A stretch of DNA of 32,000 bases from Candidatus Electrothrix sp. GW3-4 (lineage in GTDB: Bacteria > Desulfobacterota > Desulfobulbia > Desulfobulbales > Desulfobulbaceae), in assembly GCF_037902255.1 (NCBI RefSeq), contig NZ_CP147990.1:210001-242000 (forward strand), in the 5' to 3' direction. Position numbers and translations under genes: made by a program. Below, one piece after another: positions 3,012 through 26,899 of this stretch (positions are counted from its first letter, which is position 1; the number at the start of each line of letters is the position of its first letter). Below the pieces are notes generated by a model, which was given only the letters and a program-made list of their open reading frames with translations, did no database searches and was not told the DNA's origin.

Positions 3012-3111
3012 TCCTGAGGCTAATGGGGCTTGAGCTGCTGAGCTGCCCGGATAAACCTCCGGGCGGTTGGGTCGCTCAGCCTGCTTGTTTATACTCGGCT
3101 CGCTCTCCTTG

Positions 3112-4227
3112 CTATGGCCTTGGCAGGGGCATCAGCGGACCATTGGTGTTGTCACAGCGGCTCACGCAGTTGAAGTGAGCAGGACGAGAACTCCGGGTAC
3201 AATAGGCCCGTCCATAGGGATCTATCAGATCAACCTTGCCGTGCAGATCCTGGCTGGTGCCGTCACTCCAGGTCACCCGGCAGGAAATCCCTTGCCAAAA
3301 TCCCCGGTTACCACATTGCTGGACCACCTTGTAGCTGGATCTTCCCTCGCACCGGCTTTTGAGATGCTGCCAGGAGGTTACGTATTTGGGGGTGGGCTGA
3401 TGAACCACAGGATTGTTAGGTCTTCTTTTCTTCTTCTTTTTTTTCTTCTTATTCCCATTAGTATTGTTCTGGGTTTTGCAAGGCGTTACCCGGCGAGGAT
3501 CAAACTCCATTGTTTCTCTGCACTGGTCAAGGATGCATCTGTTGAGCCCAGCTTCGGAGCATTTTCGCATGGCCTTCCGTTGTGCCCTGCGTTGATTACC
3601 GGCAAGATCGCCTTGGATTGTTTGTGAGAAACCCCGTCGGGCATAGCCGGTAGCTGTGCAAACATACCCGGATTGGGCGCAGCGCTCCTCACATTGCCCA
3701 TGCTTTTGTTCACAGGCCTTGCAGTTAGGGTATTCACGCTGGGGGGCCTGGGACGATTTGGGAAAAATACCACAGCGATATTCGTTTTCCTTTTCTCCTC
3801 CCCAGTTATGAGAGGAACCGCCACCTCCCCAGCCTGGTCGGGACTGGCAGACTTCAATGCTCTCGGGCTGGCGGTTTATTTCCTCTGTGCAGCGCAGGAT
3901 ATTACAGCCATTCAGGCCCTGCTGCTGACATTGTTGGAGGGCTTTTTTTCTTGCCCCCTTTTCCCGTTTGGCCTGTTCTCCCTGCATAGTGCTGCGAAAG
4001 CCATAACGGTCATAGCCCACAGCTGTACAGACAGTGTTGGTCTCGAAACAGCGTTTTTCACAGCGCGGGCTTTGCCGGAGACAGTCCTCGCAGCTTTGGT
4101 ACATTTGTTCGCCGCCCCATCGTGACGAACCAAAGACGTTGCATTCTCTTTCTGCACCGATGGCCTGCTGGCCAAGGCAGAAAAGAGTCCCCACAAGGAA
4201 GGTGCAGGCCCATATTGCTTTTTTCAT
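3112..4227 (-). CDS. Secreted cysteine-rich protein with two homologous 8-Cys modules, a poly-Lys tract and a Cys-rich C-terminal domain
   Basis: SD AGGAGAA precedes ATG 4227. The signal peptide is MKKAIWACTFLVGTLFCLGQQAIGA. Module 1 is CEDC..C...C.......CTAVGYDRYGF...ALQQC....GLNGC. Module 2 is CKAC..C...C.......CTATGYARRGF...AMRKC....GLNRC. The sequence KKKKKKKKRR is encoded at 3418-3450. Confidence 0.8.
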   Translation of the reverse strand: MKKAIWACTFLVGTLFCLGQQAIGAERECNVFGSSRWGGEQMYQSCEDCLRQSPRCEKRCFETNTVCTAVGYDRYGFRSTMQGEQAKREKGARKKALQQCQQQGLNGCNILRCTEEINRQPESIEVCQSRPGWGGGGSSHNWGGEKENEYRCGIFPKSSQAPQREYPNCKACEQKHGQCEERCAQSGYVCTATGYARRGFSQTIQGDLAGNQRRAQRKAMRKCSEAGLNRCILDQCRETMEFDPRRVTPCKTQNNTNGNKKKKKKKKRRPNNPVVHQPTPKYVTSWQHLKSRCEGRSSYKVVQQCGNRGFWQGISCRVTWSDGTSQDLHGKVDLIDPYGRAYCTRSSRPAHFNCVSRCDNTNGPLMPLPRP

Positions 4228-4461
4228 CCGTTTTCTCCTGTTTGCTGGAATGAATGTGTAATTATTTTGGCATAATAGTCTAAGGTGGGTGGCAGGTCAA
4301 GTGGATGGCAGTCTTTCTTTTAGGGGATTTTTTTTGCCGGATTATTCTTGAAATGAGACCTCTCATTAAGAGGTGATATAGTATCTTTAAGTGTAATTTT
4401 ATATTGTCTATAGCTAATATATTATCTTTTATTTTATCTCGTTGTCGGTTAAAATAACGAC

Positions 4462-4773
4462 ATGCTTACCTCCATCCCCGCACTCCTCACCCCGCCGGAA
4501 ACGGAACAGCTGTTAGCGGAACGCTTCAAGACCCTGCGCCTTCAGGCAGGGTATAAACGGACCACCCTGGCTGCTCGGGCCGGAGTGTCTCCGGCATCTC
4601 TGAAGCGCTTTGAAACAACTGGGCAGGTTTCCCTTAAAAATCTTTTGCGTCTGGCCCATGCTCTGGGTCGTTTACCGGAATTTGCTGATCTTTTGGCTCC
4701 CCAGGAAGCTCGCTCTCTAGCTGAGCTCAAAGAGATGAGTCGCCAAGATACGCCGAAACGGGGGAGGATTTAG
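4462..4773 (+). CDS. hipB: XRE-family HTH protein, HipB-like antitoxin
   Basis: The HTH signature is LRLQAGYKRTTLAARAGVSPASLKRFETTGQVSLKNLLRLAHALG. It lies directly upstream of, and in frame with, a hipA remnant. Confidence 0.75.
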   Translation: MLTSIPALLTPPETEQLLAERFKTLRLQAGYKRTTLAARAGVSPASLKRFETTGQVSLKNLLRLAHALGRLPEFADLLAPQEARSLAELKEMSRQDTPKRGRI

Positions 4774-5268
4774 CGCCGTTATCATATCCACACCTTTGGC
4801 AATCTTATCCAGGCGAATTTTCGTATCCCGTCCTGTGATTATGCTGATCTTTTCAAGGTGACGACCCTGCTGACCCGCAACCATGGTGACCTGCTGCGGG
4901 CCTTCCGGCTGATGCTGTTCAATATCCTGACCCATAATCGTGACGACCATGTGAAGAATTTCAGTTTGATCCTGGATGGTCGCACAGGAAAATGGTCGCT
5001 GGCTCCGGCCTATGACCTCACCTTTGCCGACGGCCCCGGAGGCGAGCACAGCATGACTGTTGCCGGTGAAGGCCGGGCTCCTGCGTACAGGCAGGTTGTT
5101 GAGCTGGCAGGGCGGTATGGTGTTGCGGAGAAAGAGGTGGAAGTGATGTTTGATGAGGTTGCCGCTGCTGTGGAACGGTGGCCGGAGTTTGCTCGGGTTG
5201 CCGGGGTCAGAGAGGCGATGAGTGCGAAGATTTCTCGGCGGTTGGCGGCAGTGCGATTGCGGGCATAA
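4774..5268 (+). pseudogene. hipA: HipA-family kinase toxin, C-terminal remnant only (about 160 of the expected ~440 aa)
   Basis: The frame opens right after the hipB stop: RRYHIHTFGNLIQANFRIPSCDYADLF..LFNILTHNRDDHVKNFSLILDGRTGKWSLAPAYDL. This matches the catalytic-loop region of the HipA C-terminal domain. The N-terminal and P-loop-containing part is absent. Confidence 0.75.
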
Positions 5269-5295
5269 AGGGTAGAAATGTGGATGCACAGCAGG

Positions 5296-5448
5296 CTGTG
5301 ACGAATCGTTGCACTAGGGTGCAACGGTCAGTTCCACTATAGTGCAAGGACGAGTTCCACTAGGGTGCAACGGTCGGTTCCACTAGAGTGTAACGATGAG
5401 TTCTACTATAGTGCAATGACAGGTTGCACTCCAGTGTGACTGTATTTT
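5296..5448. repeat. Tandem array of 23-bp units (6 full units plus a half unit), iteron-like
   Basis: Units start at 5311, 5334, 5357, 5380, 5403 and 5426. The consensus is CCACTAnrGTGCAAnGrnnrGTT. The cores CACTATAGTG (perfect palindrome) and CACTAGGGTG alternate. The array sits between two convergent gene ends. Confidence 0.85.
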
Positions 5449-5471
5449 GTACGGGCGATTGCCAATCGCCC

Positions 5472-7610
5472 CTACGCCCCCCGCCGCTTGGCCCGCACCC
5501 GTTCCAATCCTTCACGCCATGTCTCCAAAGAAGGATGCCCCATAGCCTCTGCAATCTCCACGGCTTGGCTGATGTATTGCTCGGCTTGGGCAAGGTCACC
5601 TTGCTCTTCGTAAATCATACCGATGTTCCAGCTCGTGATTGCTTCTCCTGCCTTGTTACCGAGATCTTGGTGTATGCTCAGGCTCTGCTTCAGGTAGGTC
5701 AAGGCCGTGGCATAGTCACCCTGTGGCTGGTAAACTTGGCTGATACAGTTCAGCGTTGCTCCTTCCCCGTATCTGTTTCTGATCTCCCGTTGTATGGTCA
5801 GACTTTGCTCCAGATAGGCCAGTGCTGCAGCATAGTTGCCAAGTATCCTATGGATGTTGCCGATGTTGCTCAATGCACAGTCTTCCCCTGCCCGGTCGCC
5901 AATCTGCCGCTGTATAGTCAGGCTTTGCTCCGCATAATTCAATGCCGTGGCATAGTCGCCCTGTAGCTGGTAAATCAAGCTGATACTGTTCAACGTTGCT
6001 CCTTCCCCATATCTGTTTCTGATCTCCCGTTGTATGGTCAGGCTTTGCTCCAGATAGGCCAGTGCTGCAGCATAGTCGCCAAGTACCCTATGGATGTTGC
6101 CGATGTTATTCAACGCACAGTCTTCTCCAGCCTTATTTCCGATTTCCCGACAGATGATCAGATGTTGTTCATACAAGGGGAGGGCGGCGGTATAATTTCC
6201 CTGTGTCTGATAAATCTGGCCGATGTTGTTTAATGCTGTCCCTTCGCCTGGTTTGTTGCCGATCTCACGGTATATGCTCAAACTTTGCTCCAGATACTTC
6301 AGGGCATTAGCGGAGTCGCCTCGTACCCTGTAAATCTGACTGATATTGTTTAATGCTGTTCCTTCTTCGTCCCTGCCATCAATCTCACGACATATCGTCA
6401 GACTCTGCTCATATAGGTGCAGAGCGGCGGCATAATCACCCTGTGCCTCATAAATTTGACCGATGTTGCCCAGCGCAATCCCTTCTCCTTTTTTATCGCT
6501 GATCTCCCGACGTATAGTCAAGCTCTGCTCTAAATAGGTCAGGGCAGTGGTGTAGTCGCTCCATGCCTTGTAAATCTGACTGATATTATTCAGTGTTGAA
6601 CCTTCTCCTTCCCGGTCGCCGATCTCTCGGCTTATGGTCAGGCTCTGCTCAAGATACTTCAGGGCGATGGCATAATCGCACCGTGCATGGTAAAGCGCAC
6701 CGATATTGCCCAAGGTTGTGCCCTCTCCTGCCCGGTTGCCGATCTCACGTTGTATCTTCAGGCTTTGCTCCAGATAGGTCAAGGCAGCAGTATAATCACC
6801 CTTGGCATATGCAATCGTGGCAAAGTTGTTTAGGATTGTCGCTTCACCTGCCCGGTCGCAGATCTCCCGGCGTATCATCAGGCTTTGCTCCCATAAGGGC
6901 AGGGCACCACTATAGCGGGCAACACGATGAAGGTCATAGCCAGCCTCGTTCAGATGATCTGCCCGCTTCTTTTTTTTGTCTTCTGGTAGCAGCGCGGCGG
7001 CCTTCTGCCAGTATTCAGAAGCCTTGGCATAGCGCAACTGTATACGCTGGAGGTGGGCTTGGTCGGCATTGGTTTCCGCAGCAGAGATGCGCCGTTTCCG
7101 GGTGATTTTCTCCTGTTCCTCAATAGCTTGGAGGTCGCGGGCTTCAGCCTGATTTTGCAGCTCCTCAGCCTTGGCGTAGTCACCAAGCTCAATTGCCTGC
7201 CGTGCTTCTTCCTTCAGTCGTACCACCTGCGAGTCTTCGGACTGCACTGTCTCCAAGCGAAGGAGCAGTTCTTTATAATGCCCGGCTACCTCCCTCAGTT
7301 TGCAATCCAAGCCGCTGCGTGGAACCTGCTGTTCTTCCAATACCCGGAAAAAGCTACTTAGGGCGGCATCAGTAACTGCGAGATCGCCTGCATAGCGAGC
7401 AAAGACTTCCGGTGATATGCCGTAGTTATTGACCTGCTTACCGATGGCCCCTTCGCCTTCAGCAATGTTTATATCTCCATTGCCGCTGTGGGGGTAGACA
7501 CTGCCCTGAACATCACCGCCAACCGTTACGCCTCCTTCACCGGCGACTGTACTGCCGTTCTGCGTTATTGTCCCGGAGCCGCTGTTCTCATCACTTTTCC
7601 TCTTCTTCAT
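5472..7610 (-). CDS. TPR-repeat protein (about 12 x 40-aa TPR_12-like units) with an N-terminal Gly/Asn/Asp-rich motif and a coiled-coil linker; putative sensor partner of 7591-8028
   Basis: Repeating units of the form NNIGxIYxxxGDYxxALxYLEQSLxIxREIGxxxGE are read directly. N-terminal residues 26-61 are GGVTVGGDVQGSVYPHSGNGDINIAEGEGAIGKQVN. No canonical Walker A was found. Confidence 0.9.
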   Translation of the reverse strand: MKKRKSDENSGSGTITQNGSTVAGEGGVTVGGDVQGSVYPHSGNGDINIAEGEGAIGKQVNNYGISPEVFARYAGDLAVTDAALSSFFRVLEEQQVPRSGLDCKLREVAGHYKELLLRLETVQSEDSQVVRLKEEARQAIELGDYAKAEELQNQAEARDLQAIEEQEKITRKRRISAAETNADQAHLQRIQLRYAKASEYWQKAAALLPEDKKKKRADHLNEAGYDLHRVARYSGALPLWEQSLMIRREICDRAGEATILNNFATIAYAKGDYTAALTYLEQSLKIQREIGNRAGEGTTLGNIGALYHARCDYAIALKYLEQSLTISREIGDREGEGSTLNNISQIYKAWSDYTTALTYLEQSLTIRREISDKKGEGIALGNIGQIYEAQGDYAAALHLYEQSLTICREIDGRDEEGTALNNISQIYRVRGDSANALKYLEQSLSIYREIGNKPGEGTALNNIGQIYQTQGNYTAALPLYEQHLIICREIGNKAGEDCALNNIGNIHRVLGDYAAALAYLEQSLTIQREIRNRYGEGATLNSISLIYQLQGDYATALNYAEQSLTIQRQIGDRAGEDCALSNIGNIHRILGNYAAALAYLEQSLTIQREIRNRYGEGATLNCISQVYQPQGDYATALTYLKQSLSIHQDLGNKAGEAITSWNIGMIYEEQGDLAQAEQYISQAVEIAEAMGHPSLETWREGLERVRAKRRGA

Positions 7611-8028
7611 CTCTTCGCCTTTTGTCGTCAGGTAGCTGGTTCACCTGCTTGCCAATGGCTCCTTCGCCTTGGGCGATGTTCATGTCTCCATTGCCGCTGT
7701 GGGCGTAGACATCGCCATGCACATCACCGCCTACCGCCACACCGCCCTGTACCGCCTGCGCTCCTTTAAGCTTTTCCTTCAATTGTCTCGCCGCAGTCAG
7801 TACCTCCTCATCCTTATCCGCCCCGACCTTTGCCAACTCCTCGGCAACAACGGCCTTCCGCGCAGGAGAGTCCGGGTTATTCTCCAACTGCTCCACTGCT
7901 TCGGCTAGTGCGCTCTTTTCCCCGAACTTGCCTTGCAGCAGTTCCTTCAACTTGGTGTAACCATGCTTTACGCCTTCCAGGCCCAGGCTACCCACCGCAG
8001 ACGCAATTGCGGAAGTGATAAAGTCCAT
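7591..8028 (-). CDS. Small protein (145 aa): a ~90-aa helical N-domain (Bell-like, putative effector) plus a C-terminal motif shared with the TPR protein
   Basis: I preferred ATG 8028 over the ORF-track start at 8262 because GGAGGA lies 6 nt upstream of it. The C-terminal sequence is GGVAVGGDVHGDVYAHSGNGDMNIAQGEGAIGKQVN. The stop overlaps the TPR gene start by 20 nt. Confidence 0.75.
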   Translation of the reverse strand: MDFITSAIASAVGSLGLEGVKHGYTKLKELLQGKFGEKSALAEAVEQLENNPDSPARKAVVAEELAKVGADKDEEVLTAARQLKEKLKGAQAVQGGVAVGGDVHGDVYAHSGNGDMNIAQGEGAIGKQVNQLPDDKRRRDEEEEK

Positions 8029-8248
8029 GTTCGTTCCTCCATTCATTTGAATTCTATCGGCAATATCCCCCTCATCATAACCCGACATCCTATCTCCTGC
8101 ACCGGAAATATTCCCCCGAACAAGCCAAAAACATCCTTGAGGAAAACCTCCCGCAACTGTATGATGGCTTGAACGGAACATGGTGCAGTTGCACAGGAAG
8201 AGGCATGCACTGCTCCAGCTCATTGACCCCTTGCCCCTGAGTGACGCA

Positions 8249-8803
8249 ATGAAAAAAGACAAGAAGAGGAGATCAAAGCCGGTTGAACTGCTGAGAGCGG
8301 TCTACAGTGCCGCAATGCTCTTCTGCATCCCCGGACTTATTATTACCTTTATCTCACCGACGTTCATCATCAAGTTTGACCGCATCAATCAGGAGCGTGT
8401 CGATGCGACCGTCACCCGACAGCTCCTCTTTCTTATTCCGGCCTTTAAGGAGACAGCTGTGGATATCCGGGACATGAAGTCGGAAACGATGCACGGCAAG
8501 GCCATCCGTGAAGGCAGCAGAACAACAGGCAGGATTGTCGGCAATGCAGAGGACGAAGGTGTCCTTCAGCTGAACAGTCGGTCAGGGGCACCTGTATCCC
8601 TGTCTGTCTCTCCGGTAAACCTTGATGATATTGAGGAAGAGATCAGTTCCTTTATCAATGAAAGCAAGGAGCCGTCCCAGCACTTGTGGGTGACGTCCAA
8701 CTGGAAGTTCGGTGTGCTGTTGCCCGGTGCAATCCTGCTGTTCAGTCTGATAGTCTTTATTATGGCCGTCCGGTCGATCCTTACCGGCAAGACGTTGGAG
8801 TGA
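8249..8803 (+). CDS. Bitopic membrane protein (N- and C-terminal TM helices, central soluble domain), unknown family; paralogue of 29145-29675
   Basis: I chose the start at ATG 8249 (MKKDKKRRSK), which parallels MKKGSKKESR of the paralogue. The TM segments are AAMLFCIPGLIITFISPTFII and FGVLLPGAILLFSLIVFIMAV. Confidence 0.65.
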   Translation: MKKDKKRRSKPVELLRAVYSAAMLFCIPGLIITFISPTFIIKFDRINQERVDATVTRQLLFLIPAFKETAVDIRDMKSETMHGKAIREGSRTTGRIVGNAEDEGVLQLNSRSGAPVSLSVSPVNLDDIEEEISSFINESKEPSQHLWVTSNWKFGVLLPGAILLFSLIVFIMAVRSILTGKTLE

Positions 8804-21057: not shown

Positions 21058-21591
21058 ATGCCGAATACAGCCTATTTGGAGCATTATACAGCGGATGATT
21101 ATGCCCGGTGGGAGGGTGATTGGGAATTGATCTACGGTGCGCCGTATGCCATGTCGCCGTCCCCTTCCATCTCTCACCAGCGCGTGGCGAAGCGACTCCT
21201 TGTGCTGCTGGATGCACAGTTGCAGGACTGCCCTTTATGTGAGGTGCTCAGCGAGGTGGACTGGCATTGTGCCGATGACATCATCGTTCGACCGGATATT
21301 GTGGCGGTTTGTGAGGTTGAAGGGGAACAGCTTGTTCAGACTCCTGAGCTGATTATTGAAGTTGTTTCTCCGTCCACGGTTAAGCGGGATGAGCAGATAA
21401 AATTTGCGTTGTATCAGGGGAAAGGGGTGAAAAACTATATCTTGGTTTATCCGCAGGAGCGGAAGATCGTCATCTATCAGTTAACTGGTGGGCGGTATCG
21501 CAAGGTTGGGGACGATAAAATGGAGTCTTTTGATTTCAGGGTGAAAGATTGTGCTGTTAGGCTTGAATTTGAGCGGGTTTGGCGGGTGTGA
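21058..21591 (+). CDS. Uma2-family (DUF820) putative endonuclease
   Basis: AGGAGA SD is present. YTADDYARWEGDWELIYG..., PDIVAV and PELIIEVVSPST..D...K...Y match the Uma2 PD-(D/E)XK pattern. Confidence 0.85.
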   Translation: MPNTAYLEHYTADDYARWEGDWELIYGAPYAMSPSPSISHQRVAKRLLVLLDAQLQDCPLCEVLSEVDWHCADDIIVRPDIVAVCEVEGEQLVQTPELIIEVVSPSTVKRDEQIKFALYQGKGVKNYILVYPQERKIVIYQLTGGRYRKVGDDKMESFDFRVKDCAVRLEFERVWRV

Positions 21592-21720: not shown

Positions 21721-22788
21721 ATGACCAAAAGATATATCACTGCTCAGAATGTTTCTGTAGGTAAACAAATTGCCCCCATAAAAATGGTTTATCTTTTTTC
21801 TGCTGATGAATATGAAGAATTTATTGAAGAATGGATAGATACAAAGAAAGATAAATATATAAGGACTGAAAAAAATGCAGGTGCTGGTGATATGGGTAGA
21901 GATATTATTGCTTATATTGAAGACCCTAAAAGTAATCCAGAAAAATACAAATGGGATTGTTATCAGTGCAAACATTACAGTAACCCCCTAGTACCAAGTA
22001 ATATTTGGGTAGAATTCGGAAAAATTCTTTTCTATACATTTAAAAAAGAATATCCAGTCCCTGAAAAATATTACTTTGTCCCCCCGAAAGGTGTTGGTAC
22101 GGCATTATCAGCCCTTCTTAGCAATACATCAAAACTAAAAGTAGAATTGCAAAAAAATTGGGATAAACATTGTAAATACAAAATTACAAAAACTAAAGAT
22201 ATTAAATTGTCTGGAGAATTTTTAAATTATTTTAACAAATTTGATTTTTCAATTTTTGATAAAATTCCCCCAAAGAAAGTAATTGAACAGCATGCAAAAC
22301 ATGAAAATCACCTGTTACGGTTTGGGGGTGGTCTCCCCGAAAGAAAGGTTATCGAAGAAATTCCCAAAGTTGATACAGATAAGGAATTAAGATATATCAA
22401 ACAGCTAACTTTGGCCTACAATTCTGATAGTCAAGATGACATTAAAACAGTTAACGATATAGAAATATATAACAAATATAAGCAACATTTTCACAGGGCA
22501 AGAAAGAGCTTCTATCATGCGGAAGAATTAAGAATTTTCACAAGAGATAACTTGCCAGCTCAAGTTTTTGATGATTTTCAAGAGGAAGTCTTTCAAAGTG
22601 TTGCAAATACGGCAGAAGATGACTTCGAAAATGCCTTTACCAAGGTTAAAACAGTTGAAAACCAAGCAGTAAAAACTCCCATAGAGTCGAACCCACTTAG
22701 AGAAGTATGCAACACTATAGACAAAAAAGGTATATGTCATCAATTGGTTAATAAAGAAATAATTTCATGGATCAACGATAATGAATAA
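21721..22788 (+). CDS. lmuA: Lamassu/ABC-3C effector (LmuA-like): N-terminal Mrr-like PD-(D/E)XK nuclease domain plus a helical C-terminal domain
   Basis: The gene is AT-rich. EEFIEEWI...GAGDMGRDIIAY...KWDCYQCKHY fits the E..D..QxK restriction-endonuclease-fold motif order. It is the first gene of a three-gene overlapping operon that ends in an SMC-like ATPase. Confidence 0.7.
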   Translation: MTKRYITAQNVSVGKQIAPIKMVYLFSADEYEEFIEEWIDTKKDKYIRTEKNAGAGDMGRDIIAYIEDPKSNPEKYKWDCYQCKHYSNPLVPSNIWVEFGKILFYTFKKEYPVPEKYYFVPPKGVGTALSALLSNTSKLKVELQKNWDKHCKYKITKTKDIKLSGEFLNYFNKFDFSIFDKIPPKKVIEQHAKHENHLLRFGGGLPERKVIEEIPKVDTDKELRYIKQLTLAYNSDSQDDIKTVNDIEIYNKYKQHFHRARKSFYHAEELRIFTRDNLPAQVFDDFQEEVFQSVANTAEDDFENAFTKVKTVENQAVKTPIESNPLREVCNTIDKKGICHQLVNKEIISWINDNE

Positions 22789-23266
22789 TAAAATCCATAT
22801 TTTTAATAACGAAATTGAAATAGGGCTAAGAATATTAATAATTTTAAATACCGTTTACCCGCGATCTTTAGATGTTGAACTCCTTAATTACTATGATTAT
22901 TTTTCACTTCATACAGCTGACATTGGAGGTGAAGAAAGTCTTCACCCTCCAGTGCCAAATCGTTTTGGAGAATTATCAGTAAAACGAGAAATACTACAAA
23001 GGAGCTTGGAATTTTTACTTCTTAAAGGATTAATAAATCAATCTTTCACTGAAAATGGGGTAGAATTTATAGCAAGTGAAACAACTTCACCATTTATTGA
23101 TACATTGAACGAAGAATACACATTAAATTTATTAGAAAAAGCAAAATGGGTTTCTGATAAATTCAAGAATTATTCCCCCGAAAAGATAAGAAAGTATATC
23201 AATGTTAATCAAGAAAGATGGGGAAGTGAAATCTCATTTTGTAGCATAGGATGCACAAATGAATGA
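22781..23266 (+). CDS. lmuC: Lamassu/ABC-3C middle component (LmuC-like)
   Basis: The gene overlaps both neighbours by 8 nt (ATGAATAA and ATGAATGA). The 161-aa product contains LDVELLNYYDYFSLHTADIGGEESLHPPVPNRFGELSVKREIL, typical of the middle-component family as I recall it. Confidence 0.65.
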   Translation: MNNKIHIFNNEIEIGLRILIILNTVYPRSLDVELLNYYDYFSLHTADIGGEESLHPPVPNRFGELSVKREILQRSLEFLLLKGLINQSFTENGVEFIASETTSPFIDTLNEEYTLNLLEKAKWVSDKFKNYSPEKIRKYINVNQERWGSEISFCSIGCTNE

Positions 23267-25067
23267 GGTAGGGTTTTTAATAAAAAGATTACGAATAGTT
23301 GGAAAAGGTGTTGAAAGTGCCGAAGTACCATTTACCACAGGGTTAAATGTGATAATCGGTCCATCAGATACAGGAAAGACTTACATCTTCCAATGCTTGG
23401 ATTATATGCTCGGGGCAAGTAAAAAGCCGAAGGGAATTCCTGAAGCAAAAAAATATACTAGCTGTCTACTAGAAATAAAATCATATCAAGGTGACTATTA
23501 CACATTAGAACGAAGCCTTAAGGGTGGAGCATTTAATCTTTATGAAAGTAAAATTGATATTCGTGGCACAGCTAAACCACTAAAAGAGGACAATAAAGGA
23601 AGTAATGAGAGTATTTCAGACTTTTTGTTAAAATTATGCAATATTGATAATAAAAAAGTACGAAAAAATGCAAACGGACTAACGAGAAATTTATATTTTC
23701 AAGATTTAAAACGATATTGTCTAATTGATGAAGAAAGAATTATTGAAGAAAATACACCTGTTCGCAGTAAACAATACACAGAAAAAACATTTGGAGAAAA
23801 TGTTTTTAAATTTTTACTAACAGGTCAGGATGACAGTAGTATTGTTTCACTTTTAACTAAAGATGAAGTAACAAATAAAAAAGGTAAACTGGAATTACTA
23901 GAAGAAATTATTACAGCACTGAAATCAGACCTAAAAGGACAAACAAGCAAGGGTAAACTGGAAGAGCAAATTAAAAAAATAGATGATGCAATTCTTTCAT
24001 TTAAAAAAGATTATTCTTTAACTAAAGATATTTTCAATCGCTACGAAACGGAAAAGAACCAACTTTACAATCAGTTATTGCAAAAAGAATCCCGGATCAA
24101 TACGTTAATTGAGCTTCTCAAGAGGAGCGTGATTCTGGAAAGACAATATGAAAGTGATATTGCTAGACTGAAGGCAACATTTGAAGCGAGTGAATCTATT
24201 GAGAATATAGAAATATTCAATTGTCCTGTATGTAAAAGTGATTTGACGAATCAAGCCACTGTTGATACGGAGTCCATAAGACTGGCTATCAAAAAAGAAA
24301 TTGAGAAAACGATATTATTAAAAAAAGAATTAAAAGAGTCTGTAAAGCTATTTGATAATGAAAGACTATTGTTGATTCACGAGAAGAATAAACTTCAGAG
24401 GAGTTATGACGAATTAATTCGAACTATCGAAAGTGAAGCAAGTGGAAATATCTCTAAAATAGAAAAACAAATAAATTATTTTCTCATAAAAAAGGTTGAA
24501 CTATCAAAAATACAGTCACTATTTATTGAATTAGATGATTTTGAGGATAAAAAGAAAAAGATTGAAGCTATTATTCGAAATAATAAAGAAAAAGGATGTG
24601 AGAACAATTATGAAAAAATTTCAACATCAATTTTGCAGCCATTCACTGAATTAATGTACTCAACCCTCAAAGCCATCAAGTTCGAGAATCTCGGCAAGAG
24701 TGTTGGGTTTTCAGAAGATGATTTGGATTTTGTAATAGCAGGAAAAAACAGAAAAGATTACGGAAAAGGGTACCGTGCTATTCTATACGCTATCTTTACG
24801 ATTACACTTTTAGAATTCCTAAAAAACAAACCATACAAAATAGGTTTCATCCTCATTGATTCACCATTAAATCCATACAAACCCGATGAATCGACAGAAG
24901 GCAAAATATCAAGAAATTTAGCCAACAATTGCTACAAATATTTACATGAAAGCACGAACGATCAACAGGTTATTATTATAGAAAATACAGAACCTCCAAA
25001 ATGCCTTGAGGAAGAGATTAATTTTATTAAATTTAGCAAAGAAAATGGCTTTATACCTAAACAATAG
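23259..25067 (+). CDS. lmuB: Lamassu/ABC-3C SMC/Rad50-like ABC ATPase (LmuB-like, DUF3732-type)
   Basis: Walker A is GLNVIIGPSDTGKTYIFQCLDYMLG. There is a long Lys/Glu-rich coiled-coil insert with CPVCKS (a zinc-hook-like CxxC). The C-terminus has GFILIDSPL (Walker B) and QVIIIENTEP. Confidence 0.8.
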   Translation: MNEVGFLIKRLRIVGKGVESAEVPFTTGLNVIIGPSDTGKTYIFQCLDYMLGASKKPKGIPEAKKYTSCLLEIKSYQGDYYTLERSLKGGAFNLYESKIDIRGTAKPLKEDNKGSNESISDFLLKLCNIDNKKVRKNANGLTRNLYFQDLKRYCLIDEERIIEENTPVRSKQYTEKTFGENVFKFLLTGQDDSSIVSLLTKDEVTNKKGKLELLEEIITALKSDLKGQTSKGKLEEQIKKIDDAILSFKKDYSLTKDIFNRYETEKNQLYNQLLQKESRINTLIELLKRSVILERQYESDIARLKATFEASESIENIEIFNCPVCKSDLTNQATVDTESIRLAIKKEIEKTILLKKELKESVKLFDNERLLLIHEKNKLQRSYDELIRTIESEASGNISKIEKQINYFLIKKVELSKIQSLFIELDDFEDKKKKIEAIIRNNKEKGCENNYEKISTSILQPFTELMYSTLKAIKFENLGKSVGFSEDDLDFVIAGKNRKDYGKGYRAILYAIFTITLLEFLKNKPYKIGFILIDSPLNPYKPDESTEGKISRNLANNCYKYLHESTNDQQVIIIENTEPPKCLEEEINFIKFSKENGFIPKQ

Positions 25068-25345: not shown

Positions 25346-26899
25346 ATGCTCAAACCCCTACCAACCAGCATCCAGACATTCTGCGATCTTATCAACGGCG
25401 GCTACCTCTACATTGATAAGACGCAGTATCTCTACGAACTGGTCCGCTACCCCAAGGGTGTCTATTTTCTCGCCAGACCGCGCCGTTTCGGCAAGAGCCT
25501 GCTGATTTCCACCCTGGACGAGATTTTCCAAGGCAATAAAGAACTGTTCAAAGGGCTGTGGCTTTATAACAGTCCCTATCAATGGCAGCAACATCCAGTC
25601 ATTCGGATTGATTTCAGTCGTCATCGCATTCGGAATGAAGCAGACTTGGAAGTACGGATTCATCGCCACCTGAGTCTTATCGCCCGGCAATATAACATCA
25701 ATCTGCCGGACGCTCCTTTTGACATCCGGTTTGAAGAGTTGATTTTATCGCTGGGAACGGAAAAACAGGTTGTTATCCTTATTGACGAATACGACAAACC
25801 GTTGATCGACAACTTGGAAAGAATAGAAGATGCCCAAGCGATTCAACAGGTTCTGAGGGAGTTCTATACGGTTATAAAGTCTATGGATCAGTATATCCGT
25901 TTCGTCTTTATCACGGGGGTCAGCAGATTCAGCCGGGTCGGGGTCTTCTCGTCCATGAATAACCTCCTTGATCTGACAATGCACCCTGATTTTGCCGGAT
26001 TACTGGGATTGACCGAAAATGAAATTAGACAGTCTTTTCAAGGCTACCTGACGAAATTTGCCGAAGAAAAAAATATTTCCGAGGTTGCATTGCTGGATCA
26101 GATGCGCCGATGGTATGACGGATTTCGTTTTGTCGACGGCAGCGAGCGGCTCTACAATCCTTTTTCCACCATGCATTTTTTTCATAACCGACGCTTTGCC
26201 AATTATTGGTTTGAAACCGGTACCCCCTCTTTTTTGATCAAGCTCATCAAAGAACAGAATTTCGATGTCACCCGGCTCGAACACCTTGAACTCAGAGAAA
26301 CCGCCTTCAGCACCTATGAGCTGGAAAACTTGGCCGTCATCCCGCTGCTGGTCCAGACCGGCTATCTGACTATTAAGGAGTATGATCAGGAGAACCGTAA
26401 ATATACCTTGGGGCATCCCAATTATGAAGTCAAAGACGCCTTTTCCGTCCATCTGCTGGGGGCCTTCAGCTCGGTGAACTACGGGCTCGGCGAGTCGTAT
26501 CTCTGGCAATTGATCGACGCTTTGCAGGCTGGAGAGTTAGAAGAATTCTTCACCATCCTGGATGTCTTCTTCGCCAACATCGACTATCAGCTTCATCTGA
26601 AATATGAAAAATATTATCAGACCATTTTTTACCTGATTTTCCTGCTGCTCGGCTTACGGGTCGAGGCCGAGGTGGAGACCAACAAGGGGAGGATTGATGC
26701 TGTGGTGGAGTTGAAGGAAGCCGTCTTTCTTTTTGAATTCAAGCTGGACGGCAGCGTAGACGAGGCCCTGCGTCAGATCATAACTCGGGAGTATTATAAG
26801 AAATATATTTTAAAGGGGAAGCCGGTGACCCTGGTGGGTGTTAACTTCGACAGCGAAAAACGTGGGGTAGCTGAGTGGCGGGGTGAGCTTGTTGCGTAG
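25346..26899 (+). CDS. AAA-ATPase-like protein with a C-terminal PD-(D/E)XK nuclease domain (PDDEXK_9 type)
   Basis: The N-terminus FCDLINGGYLYIDKTQYLYELV....YFLARPRRFGKSLLISTL is characteristic of the family. The C-terminus has GRIDAVVEL...FLFEFKLDGS (D..E.K). Confidence 0.88.
   Translation: MLKPLPTSIQTFCDLINGGYLYIDKTQYLYELVRYPKGVYFLARPRRFGKSLLISTLDEIFQGNKELFKGLWLYNSPYQWQQHPVIRIDFSRHRIRNEADLEVRIHRHLSLIARQYNINLPDAPFDIRFEELILSLGTEKQVVILIDEYDKPLIDNLERIEDAQAIQQVLREFYTVIKSMDQYIRFVFITGVSRFSRVGVFSSMNNLLDLTMHPDFAGLLGLTENEIRQSFQGYLTKFAEEKNISEVALLDQMRRWYDGFRFVDGSERLYNPFSTMHFFHNRRFANYWFETGTPSFLIKLIKEQNFDVTRLEHLELRETAFSTYELENLAVIPLLVQTGYLTIKEYDQENRKYTLGHPNYEVKDAFSVHLLGAFSSVNYGLGESYLWQLIDALQAGELEEFFTILDVFFANIDYQLHLKYEKYYQTIFYLIFLLLGLRVEAEVETNKGRIDAVVELKEAVFLFEFKLDGSVDEALRQIITREYYKKYILKGKPVTLVGVNFDSEKRGVAEWRGELVA

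Follow-up and report, generated by a model that had tools for sequence, protein, structure and literature searches.

A candidate amyloid-signaling gene pair in a cable bacterium links a Bell-domain protein to a tetratricopeptide-repeat partner without a nucleoside triphosphatase domain

Results and Discussion

Organization of the gene pair

We analyzed a 32,000-nt stretch of DNA from Candidatus Electrothrix sp. GW3-4 (contig NZ_CP147990.1, positions 210,001 to 242,000; hereafter the window, whose own numbering is used throughout). The source is a cable bacterium and was established by an exact match of the small protein described here (P0001, 100% identical). Two neighboring genes on the minus strand are the subject of this study: a small gene at 7591-8028, a putative executioner gene encoding a 145-aa protein with a Bell domain, and a partner gene at 5472-7610, encoding a 712-aa protein made up of a short motif, a helical linker and about 12 tetratricopeptide repeats (TPRs), with no nucleoside triphosphatase (NTPase) domain. 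The motif of the partner is shared with the C-terminal part of the small protein. ORF calls confirmed the two open reading frames (ORFs) and their 20-nt overlap, which had been noted in an earlier reading of the sequence alone (hereafter the original prediction).

In the public annotation, the small gene (WGN25_00975, 165 aa, 7591-8088, minus strand) starts 20 codons upstream of the ATG at 8028. Because the Shine-Dalgarno sequence GGAGGA can be read directly 6 nt upstream of this ATG (8035-8040, minus strand) and every homologue of the small protein begins with MDF or MEF, the ATG at 8028 is probably the true start and the 165-aa annotation too long. At its other end, the protein does not stop with the shared motif, as had been supposed; it runs on for 15 charged residues (QLPDDKRRRDEEEEK), and the segment encoding this tail and the stop codon (7591-7638, minus strand) overlaps the ribosome-binding region and start codon of the partner gene. 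RRRDEEEE-like tails are also found in homologues with the motif class referred to below as class C. A promoter and terminator scan at the locus gave nothing above chance.

The small protein carries a Bell domain

The N-terminal part of the small protein (aa 1-90; 7759-8028, minus strand) consists of a hydrophobic helix beginning MDFITS and four further helices. Pfam assigned aa 1-84 to PF20701 (HetE-N) with 28.1 bits against a curated cutoff of 25 bits (E = 2.5e-6), and the same domain was present in all 27 close homologues. Since a literature search on "HetE-N" and PF20701 found no relevant paper, the link to Bell was tested directly with the published Bell-side sequences of the BASS data set (PMC8086366). 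A profile built from the N-domains of cable bacteria (A2) matched PLS85526.1 (9e-20), CCI22909.1 (4e-14), AFR28659.1 (8e-12) and KZB79293.1 (2e-10).

The AlphaFold2 (AF2) model of the small protein, based on a 22-sequence alignment, contains helices at residues 2-10, 17-35, 40-50, 55-68 and 74-94, with a predicted local distance difference test (pLDDT) score of about 80-87 for aa 21-80; from residue 93 on, the tail is modeled without structure and with low confidence. A five-helix, all-alpha domain within a 145-aa protein fits what is expected of Bell, namely a domain of about 90-100 aa in a protein of 120-140 aa. The N-terminus, MDFITSAIASAVGSLG, forms a hydrophobic helix whose second residue is acidic, and this start (MDFITSAIASAVG) has the features of the "MEPIS" region known from Bell, HeLo and Bab; among relatives, the N-termini read MEFIT, MDPIT and MEPIT. 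The "MEPIS" motif has been reported for Bab, Bell and antiphage NOD-like receptors (NLRs; NOD, nucleotide-binding oligomerization domain).

Taken together, the Pfam score above the cutoff, the homology to published Bell-side proteins and the five-helix model support the earlier proposal that the helix-rich domain of about 90 aa belongs to an executioner family, and they identify the small protein as a member of the Bell-domain family. Bell is the bacterial counterpart of the fungal HeLo/HET-S membrane-targeting domain. In a sequence search against PDB chains, the Bell profile gave nothing below E = 0.39. PADLOC gave no model for the small protein, and the GapS6a antiphage model matched it faintly (E = 0.033).

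The shared motif is composite

BLASTP aligned aa 94-130 of the small protein with aa 25-61 of the partner at 30 of 37 identical residues (E = 5e-18), which agrees with the 36-aa motif with 30 identities that had first drawn attention to the pair. The similarity described earlier at the DNA level, between 7639-7746 and 7428-7535, was likewise recovered, at 81% identity. Judged from these alignments, the resemblance is far beyond chance. When the 36 motif codons were compared, 17 were identical, 13 differed only synonymously and 6 non-synonymously; thus, both copies are under purifying selection at the protein level and do not merely represent a fresh duplication.

In the small protein, the motif occupies aa 95-130 (GGVAVGGDVHGDVYAHSGNGDMNIAQGEGAIGKQVN; 7639-7746, minus strand) and consists of the second half of a BASS6-type unit followed by a second element, here called the D unit (HSGNGD-x-NIA-x-GEGAIGKQVN). 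In the partner, the shared stretch lies where it had been placed, at about residues 26-61, but the motif region as a whole reaches upstream to about aa 10. It comprises a full BASS6-type unit (SGSGTITQNGSTVAGEGGVTVGGDVQGSVY) and the D unit (HSGNGDINIAEGEGAIGKQVN), spanning aa 10-61 (7428-7583, minus strand; shared stretch 7428-7535). Its first part, aa 10-25 (SGSGTITQNGSTVAGE), is the first half of the BASS6-type motif and has no counterpart in the small protein. Both copies are predicted to be disordered in the monomer AF2 models, with pLDDT <50 for the tail of the small protein and 33-52, without secondary structure, for aa 1-60 of the partner.

Per 36 residues, the motif contains 10 G (28%), 5 V (14%), 3 N, 2 Q, 2-3 I, 1 K, 0-1 P and 0 L, a composition that fits the published bias of BASS motifs, which are rich in G, N, Q, V and I and poor in K, P and L. 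In the data set of PMC8086366, cluster C09 corresponds to BASS6 and includes SGAIAQGPGAVAAGERGVAIGGD..., DGGVAVGGDVEIRADGG... and RWX52249.1 (SGAIAQGQGAVAAGAGGIAVGGSVHGGINMPDNRDK); the last, already part of the published BASS6 set, is almost identical to the class C tails of cable bacteria. We built a BASS6 hidden Markov model (HMM) from 52 published sequences, leaving out RWX52249.1, and searched it against all window ORFs and the collected pairs. It matched the small protein at aa 94-113 (E = 9e-5) and the partner at aa ~16-38 (E = 3e-4), with modest scores of 14.9-16.4 bits that cover half of the shared stretch. Only these two motif copies were matched among the window ORFs, the best unrelated ORF having E = 0.99.

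The match to a known BASS family is thus confined to the first half of the motif: the D unit has no clear counterpart among BASS1-10, save a partial resemblance to one sequence of the BASS3 set. This unit is the standard N-terminus of the partner's own family, described below. A homology search with the motif alone returned no candidate, and the exact composite was absent from the database searched. The acidic residues of the motif, which the original prediction had regarded as unusual, turned out to be common in published BASS6 members, and we do not consider them an oddity.

The partner combines a helical linker with TPRs and has no NTPase

Behind the motif region, the partner contains an all-helical linker module (aa 62-215; 6966-7427, minus strand) and a TPR array (5475-6965, minus strand). 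The AF2 model of residues 1-300, calculated from 26 sequences, shows helices at 67-76, 81-93, 98-121, 127-141 and 145-207, the last being a predicted helix of 63 residues; aa 67-300 are confidently all-helical (pLDDT 88-98 from residue 67), with no beta strand. No model for the linker was found in Pfam or NCBIfam. The array comprises about 12 units of the TPR_12/TPR_10 type and a C-terminal cap: Pfam scored TPR_12 at 308 bits and TPR_10 with 11 stretches, finding only TPR families from about residue 215 up to about residue 693 of 712, and the C-terminus is a TPR capping helix. The outline given earlier, a motif followed by a linker and about 12 TPR units, was thus borne out, the linker being a helical module of about 155 aa.

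At the DNA level, a tandem repeat with a period of 240 bp and 90% matches was detected at 5699-6132, and units of 240 bp, each encoding two TPRs, with 90% DNA identity extend over 5699-6296. The gene pair was reproduced in three independent short-read assemblies of the strain (L021-L023; loci are numbered with L and proteins with P), and all three end inside the TPR array. Such near-identical repeats cause short-read assemblies to truncate the partner gene, and because these assemblies break here, the 712-aa protein is absent from the protein database. The number of TPRs could also be mis-estimated in draft genomes. In their 90% identity, the repeats resemble the rapidly diversifying repeats of NLRs. 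Over its last ~130 nt (5469-5600), which encode the C-terminal capping helices, the gene matches the end of an NB-ARC-TPR gene of Electrothrix sp. YB6 (L001:8233-8364) at 79.5% identity, suggesting that TPR arrays may have been exchanged between sensor families of the NLR type and those without an NTPase.

The partner has no NTPase. Pfam, NCBIfam and PADLOC detected no NTPase family in it, PADLOC returning only a generic "TPR" model, and the Walker A pattern G-x4-GK[ST] was not found. The first 300 aa are modeled as described above, and Foldseek related them only to generic TPR solenoids (best E = 5e-3). As positive controls, the partners at L001, L006, L009, L010, L014 and L016 did show NB-ARC or NACHT together with Walker A. 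The lack of a P-loop or NB-ARC/NACHT region stated in the original prediction was therefore confirmed. That it listed such a sensor as unusual was an overstatement, as Bab/Agp and GAPS6 are validated examples, discussed below.

The linker-TPR arrangement is recurrent

With residues 1-216 of the partner as the query, 63 relatives were retrieved, and every one of them came from a cable bacterium or a metagenome. Their architecture is a short motif, the linker and 3-12 TPRs; none has an NTPase domain, and one adds EAD8. An exhaustive search with a profile of the linker only, seeded with the window protein, identified 1,896 clusters at E<=1e-3 and 194 at E<=1e-30, and Walker A was found in 0 of the 139 top-matching proteins. 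The family consensus reads ..YGI[SP]PE..AL..FF.IL....VP...L..KL.EIA...KEL... and is followed by TPR_12-type repeats, with no NTPase. N-terminal to the linker, members carry short beta-type segments of G, N, Q, T and V, often after a transmembrane (TM) helix, or TIR_2, Trypsin_2, PNP_UDP_1 or EAD8 domains; EAD8 fusions to linker and TPRs are seen in paralogues of the partner from cable bacteria.

Two further observations connect this module with Bell. In P0135 and P0203, a Bell-like domain is fused directly to linker and TPRs (hhalign probability 97.6%, E about 5e-12). On a distant soil-metagenome contig (L008), a separate Bell-like gene has a tail, SAQGIGIAQADRGGKASVQMGY, that matches the N-terminus of the next gene, TASGTGIAQATQGGTATVNITGY, and across 165 residues the linker of that next protein shares 32% identity with that of the window partner (E = 2e-21). 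The NTPase-less arrangement is thus recurrent and ancient and does not result from decay. The linker module is not described in the surveys of Kaur, Burroughs, Iyer and Aravind 2020/2021 (PMC7159879, PMC8195603) as far as our search of them goes, and the linker-TPR sensors apparently represent a family not yet described.

These data bear on the possibility that the partner arose from an NLR through decay and loss of the NB-ARC domain, the pair being non-functional and the motif similarity reflecting recent common descent or gene conversion. Such a history would agree with the fact that all other Electrothrix Bell genes examined adjoin NB-ARC-TPR proteins, with the truncation of the neighboring hipA and with the resemblance of the last 130 nt of the TPR gene to an NB-ARC-TPR gene end. 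However, both ORFs are intact, the motif codons show 13 synonymous against 6 non-synonymous differences, and a like architecture stands beside a Bell gene in the distant organism of L008. The linker, moreover, is conserved, is modeled with a confident fold and counts 1,896 clusters, with no Walker A in the 139 top matches, so it is not NB-ARC debris. We rejected a deletion of NB-ARC on the strength of the conserved linker family and its recurrence in a distant organism; decay of an NLR is thus very improbable and largely refuted.

Motif classes co-vary with their neighbors

We collected 14 distinct loci from Electrothrix, Electronema, metagenomes, the cyanobacteria Fischerella and Mastigocoleus and one soil contig. 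Because pattern scans of genomes and of metagenomes gave only 4 loci each, most of the evidence on synteny comes from per-protein contig look-ups. Across 28 homologues of the small protein, the N-domain is 60-90% identical and the tails fall into at least six unrelated classes, each of which matches its own neighbor. In a 14 x 14 score matrix, which compares each tail with the N-terminal 130 residues encoded by each downstream gene, cognate pairs had a median score of 65.5 versus 24 for non-cognate pairs, and high off-diagonal scores were confined to the same motif class. The homologues are therefore syntenic and the two motif copies co-vary class by class, as the original prediction would lead one to expect. 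All complete partners among the collected loci, except the window's, carry Walker A and NB-ARC or NACHT.

Three loci from other Electrothrix populations (L014, L016 and L017) share their flanks with the window, namely uvrA at one end and hipA with its helix-turn-helix (HTH) gene at the other, with different tails and NB-ARC-TPR partners in between. In blastn comparisons with the syntenic L014 and L016, the flanks and the Bell-domain part were 81-90% identical, and only weak TPR-repeat matches were found between them. The variable segment thus delimited contains the tail motif and the sensor gene (5273-7799), with breakpoints at ~7761-7799, the junction of Bell domain and tail, and at ~5273-5290, in the 3' part of hipA. 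This comparison indicates that motif and sensor are replaced jointly, as a single cassette, while the Bell domain in front of them stays constant, and such joint exchange would explain how the match between tail and partner stays intact.

The replacement of a cassette from strain to strain at a fixed locus recalls fungal het loci and raises the possibility that the pair serves allorecognition or developmental cell death within the filament, policing damaged or foreign cells or causing programmed breakage; the wiring would be the same, with an endogenous trigger and no antiphage role. Bell/NLR systems are concentrated in multicellular prokaryotes, and cable bacteria contain unexplained dead "ghost" cells and have been discussed as undergoing sacrificial cell death. 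On the other hand, the sole experimentally characterized bacterial relatives act against phages, genes of an ABC-3C conflict system and of nucleases lie in the same window, and hypervariable cassettes are equally typical of defense hotspots. We therefore regard a purely endogenous role as quite unlikely.

Several other arrangements were observed among the sister loci. The tails of P0016 and P0009 (L010:6001-8373, L013:803-2203, L020:4001-5131) each contain two units. The one at the end, GSGDN[VI]GRDK, matches the neighboring NB-ARC/NACHT-TPR partner; the one before it, GEQNIAQGxxAIGKQV, has no match in that partner and matches the N-termini of solo linker-TPR proteins such as P0072, which lies ~80 kb away on the same 461-kb contig (15 of 18 residues matching the P0016 unit). 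Such tails hint at cross-wiring of one executioner to two sensors. L009 contains two Bell and NB-ARC pairs of motif classes A and C (3024-4701 and 6001-8539), ~3 kb apart on one cable-bacterium contig; the first partner is apparently split into ORFs of 266 and 184 aa, and the second Bell protein has a tail of class C plus D unit, whereas its partner has class C only. In Candidatus Electronema sp. KV (L002:6001-6528), a Bell gene whose class C tail runs into unrelated sequence has no partner gene downstream and is probably a decayed copy.

Comparison with known systems

BASS1-10 pairs of Bell proteins and NLRs were described from filamentous bacteria by Dyrka et al. (2020; bioRxiv 10.1101/2020.01.06.895854). 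The window pair resembles them in occurring in a multicellular prokaryote and in that half of its motif matches BASS6, and the sister loci of cable bacteria are classical Bell and NB-ARC-TPR pairs. It differs in that its partner has neither NB-ARC nor NACHT and its motif is a composite of a BASS6-type and a D unit. Because that screen considered only NB-ARC/NACHT neighbors, NTPase-less pairs were excluded from it by design.

The closest experimental precedents are two antiphage systems with an NTPase-less TPR partner. One is Bab/Agp of E. coli ECOR25 (Ibarlosa et al. 2024; bioRxiv 10.1101/2024.11.07.622273); the other, GAPS6 of Vibrio, was validated independently (Mahata et al.; bioRxiv 10.1101/2023.03.28.534373). 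Both have been shown experimentally to protect against phages by abortive infection, and in both the TPR partner acts through amyloid signaling. As in these systems, the window has adjacent genes for a small Bell-related helical protein with a C-terminal motif and for an NTPase-less TPR protein whose N-terminus carries that motif too. In contrast, Agp and GapS6b have GreA/B-C and PIN nuclease domains after the TPRs, whereas the window partner ends at the TPR cap and has a conserved linker of ~155 aa before the TPRs. The motif there is BASS11, in place of BASS6-type plus D unit, and the Bell domain of the window is of the longer classical type, not a "Babybell". The window pair thus has neither the NLR feature of classical Bell/BASS pairs nor the GreA/B-C-PIN feature of Bab/Agp, and by analogy we infer that it would work like both.

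A more distant parallel is HET-S/NWD2 of Podospora anserina, where a pore-forming or membrane-targeting helical domain stays inactive until an adjacent repeat receptor, through the matching motif at its N-terminus, templates the motif that follows the domain, a templating step that is presumed for the window pair. The fungal system is eukaryotic, has a NACHT-WD NLR as its receptor and shows no motif sequence homology to the window pair; its effector contains two pseudo-repeats of one motif, whereas the window motif has two different types of unit. The variable-effector systems with a constant TPR-GreA/B-C-PIN core and the EAD-coupled conflict systems described by Kaur and colleagues (PMC7159879, PMC8195603) are similar in having a constant repeat core after interchangeable effector or adaptor domains (TIR, trypsin, PNPase, EAD) and in being enriched in multicellular prokaryotes, and EAD8 fusions occur among the cable-bacterium paralogues. 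In the linker family, the constant core differs in consisting of helical linker and TPRs only.

Proposed mechanism

We interpret the pair as a two-gene Bell/BASS-type module that serves regulated cell death or immunity and whose sensor is an NTPase-less protein of helical linker and TPRs and not an NLR, and we assign this reading a probability of roughly 60%. Amyloid templating by the shared motif is proposed by analogy with HET-S/NWD2 and E. coli Bab/Agp. In this model, the TPR array would bind a trigger, for example a phage protein or another danger-associated protein, and binding would lead to self-association through the long helical linker. The clustered N-terminal motifs of the partner could then adopt a stacked cross-beta fold and template the matching motif on the Bell protein. 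Upon this conversion, the hydrophobic N-terminal helix would be freed, attack the membrane and kill or silence the infected cell of the filament.

Several findings weigh against this interpretation. Foldseek returned no PDB match below E = 1 for the small-protein model and did not recover the crystal structure of Bab, although small helical bundles are uninformative in such searches. The BASS6 matches are modest and restricted to half of the shared stretch, and the published experiments that we found cover BASS1, BASS3 and BASS11, not BASS6. The partner also has no NTPase that could drive oligomerization upon ligand binding. Most cable-bacterium paralogues of the partner are solo genes; neither the TIR gene near the solo paralogue P0072 nor the 85-aa gene upstream of the solo paralogue P0039 shares a motif with it. 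Finally, the D unit abuts the linker, and a beta-type segment precedes "YGISPE" generally in the linker family, including TM-anchored members without a known partner, so the D unit could be an ordinary oligomerization element and not a prion-like switch.

Some of these points also fit a conventional heteromeric contact that does not involve amyloid, for instance paired beta-strands or a short beta-helix, by which the TPR protein would keep the Bell protein inactive in a soluble complex, as an antitoxin or chaperone, until a ligand or loss of the TPR protein frees the executioner. The lack of an NTPase for oligomerization and the family-wide beta-type segment are compatible with such a contact, as are the translational coupling of the genes, which is also seen in toxin-antitoxin pairs, and the HipBA module that adjoins the locus. 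However, the motif is disordered in both monomer models and matches a published amyloid-signaling family, fusions of Bell and linker-TPR in one chain are unfit for a stoichiometric inhibitor, and the TPR protein of the validated Bab/Agp system activates rather than inhibits. Inhibition through a non-amyloid contact is for these reasons rather unlikely, and templating by the shared motif remains our preferred reading.

At the level of the family, we tentatively raise a broader possibility. The helical linker with TPRs might constitute a widespread (~1,900 clusters), self-associating and nucleotide-independent counterpart of the NOD-repeat core of NLRs, which would activate its N-terminal attachments (TIR, protease, PNP, EAD8, TM helices or Bell) either directly or via a prion-like motif. 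Composite tails might in turn wire one Bell executioner to several sensors, forming a trans-acting amyloid network.

Genomic surroundings

Downstream of the pair, on the plus strand, lies a hipB-like/hipA flank (4462-5268), which we consider context and not part of the system. The gene for the HipB-like HTH protein (4462-4773; Pfam HTH_31/HTH_3) is intact. The hipA gene is a truncated remnant (4858-5268) that covers only positions 114-213 of the HipA_C profile; about 760 bp are missing compared with the sister strains, and a 418-aa HipA is intact in L014, L016 and L017.

On the other side, between the Bell gene and uvrA, a gene at 8180-8803 (plus strand, divergent to the Bell gene) encodes a 207-aa predicted two-TM protein with no Pfam match; it is absent from the syntenic L014 and L016, where the interval is 72-209 bp, and is therefore a strain-specific insertion. 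At 3112-4227 (minus strand), a 371-aa cysteine-rich, apparently secreted protein with no Pfam match is encoded, containing two internal repeats (C..C......CE.RC...), a glycine run and the lysine run KKKKKKKKRR. Further along the window, a low-GC island (21721-25067; 31% vs about 50%) contains an ABC-3C conflict system consisting of CTD6 (PF20282), MC2 (PF20288) and a 602-aa ABC-type ATPase. It is flanked by nuclease-type genes, Uma2 at 21058-21591 and an AAA-ATPase_like/PDDEXK_9 gene at 25346-26899, and was probably acquired horizontally.

Implications

In a conserved principle of immunity, known from fungi and animals and, since 2020-2024, also from bacteria, a receptor uses amyloid or prion-like signaling to switch on an executioner that attacks membranes. 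The receptors in question have mostly been NLRs, which depend on their ATPase for oligomerization. As the general mechanism is already known, our finding extends this field rather than founding it. The novelty lies in a partner of a third kind, in the composite build of the motif, in the first explicit account of such a pair from cable bacteria and in the evidence for cassette exchange; the linker-TPR family is the most novel element.

Judging from this locus, from the two proteins that unite Bell, linker and TPRs in one chain and from how large the linker-TPR family is, a simple protein of helical linker and TPRs may be able to replace the NLR engine, and a minimal NTPase-less sensor of this kind could be reconstituted in vitro. 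The locus also illustrates how matching may be preserved, with motif and sensor traveling as one cassette behind a constant executioner domain. If the wiring suggested by the composite tails is true, they would point to a trans-acting amyloid signaling network instead of isolated gene pairs. For cable bacteria, uncultured multicellular filaments in which "ghost" cells occur, the pair provides concrete candidate genes for regulated cell death or antiviral defense.

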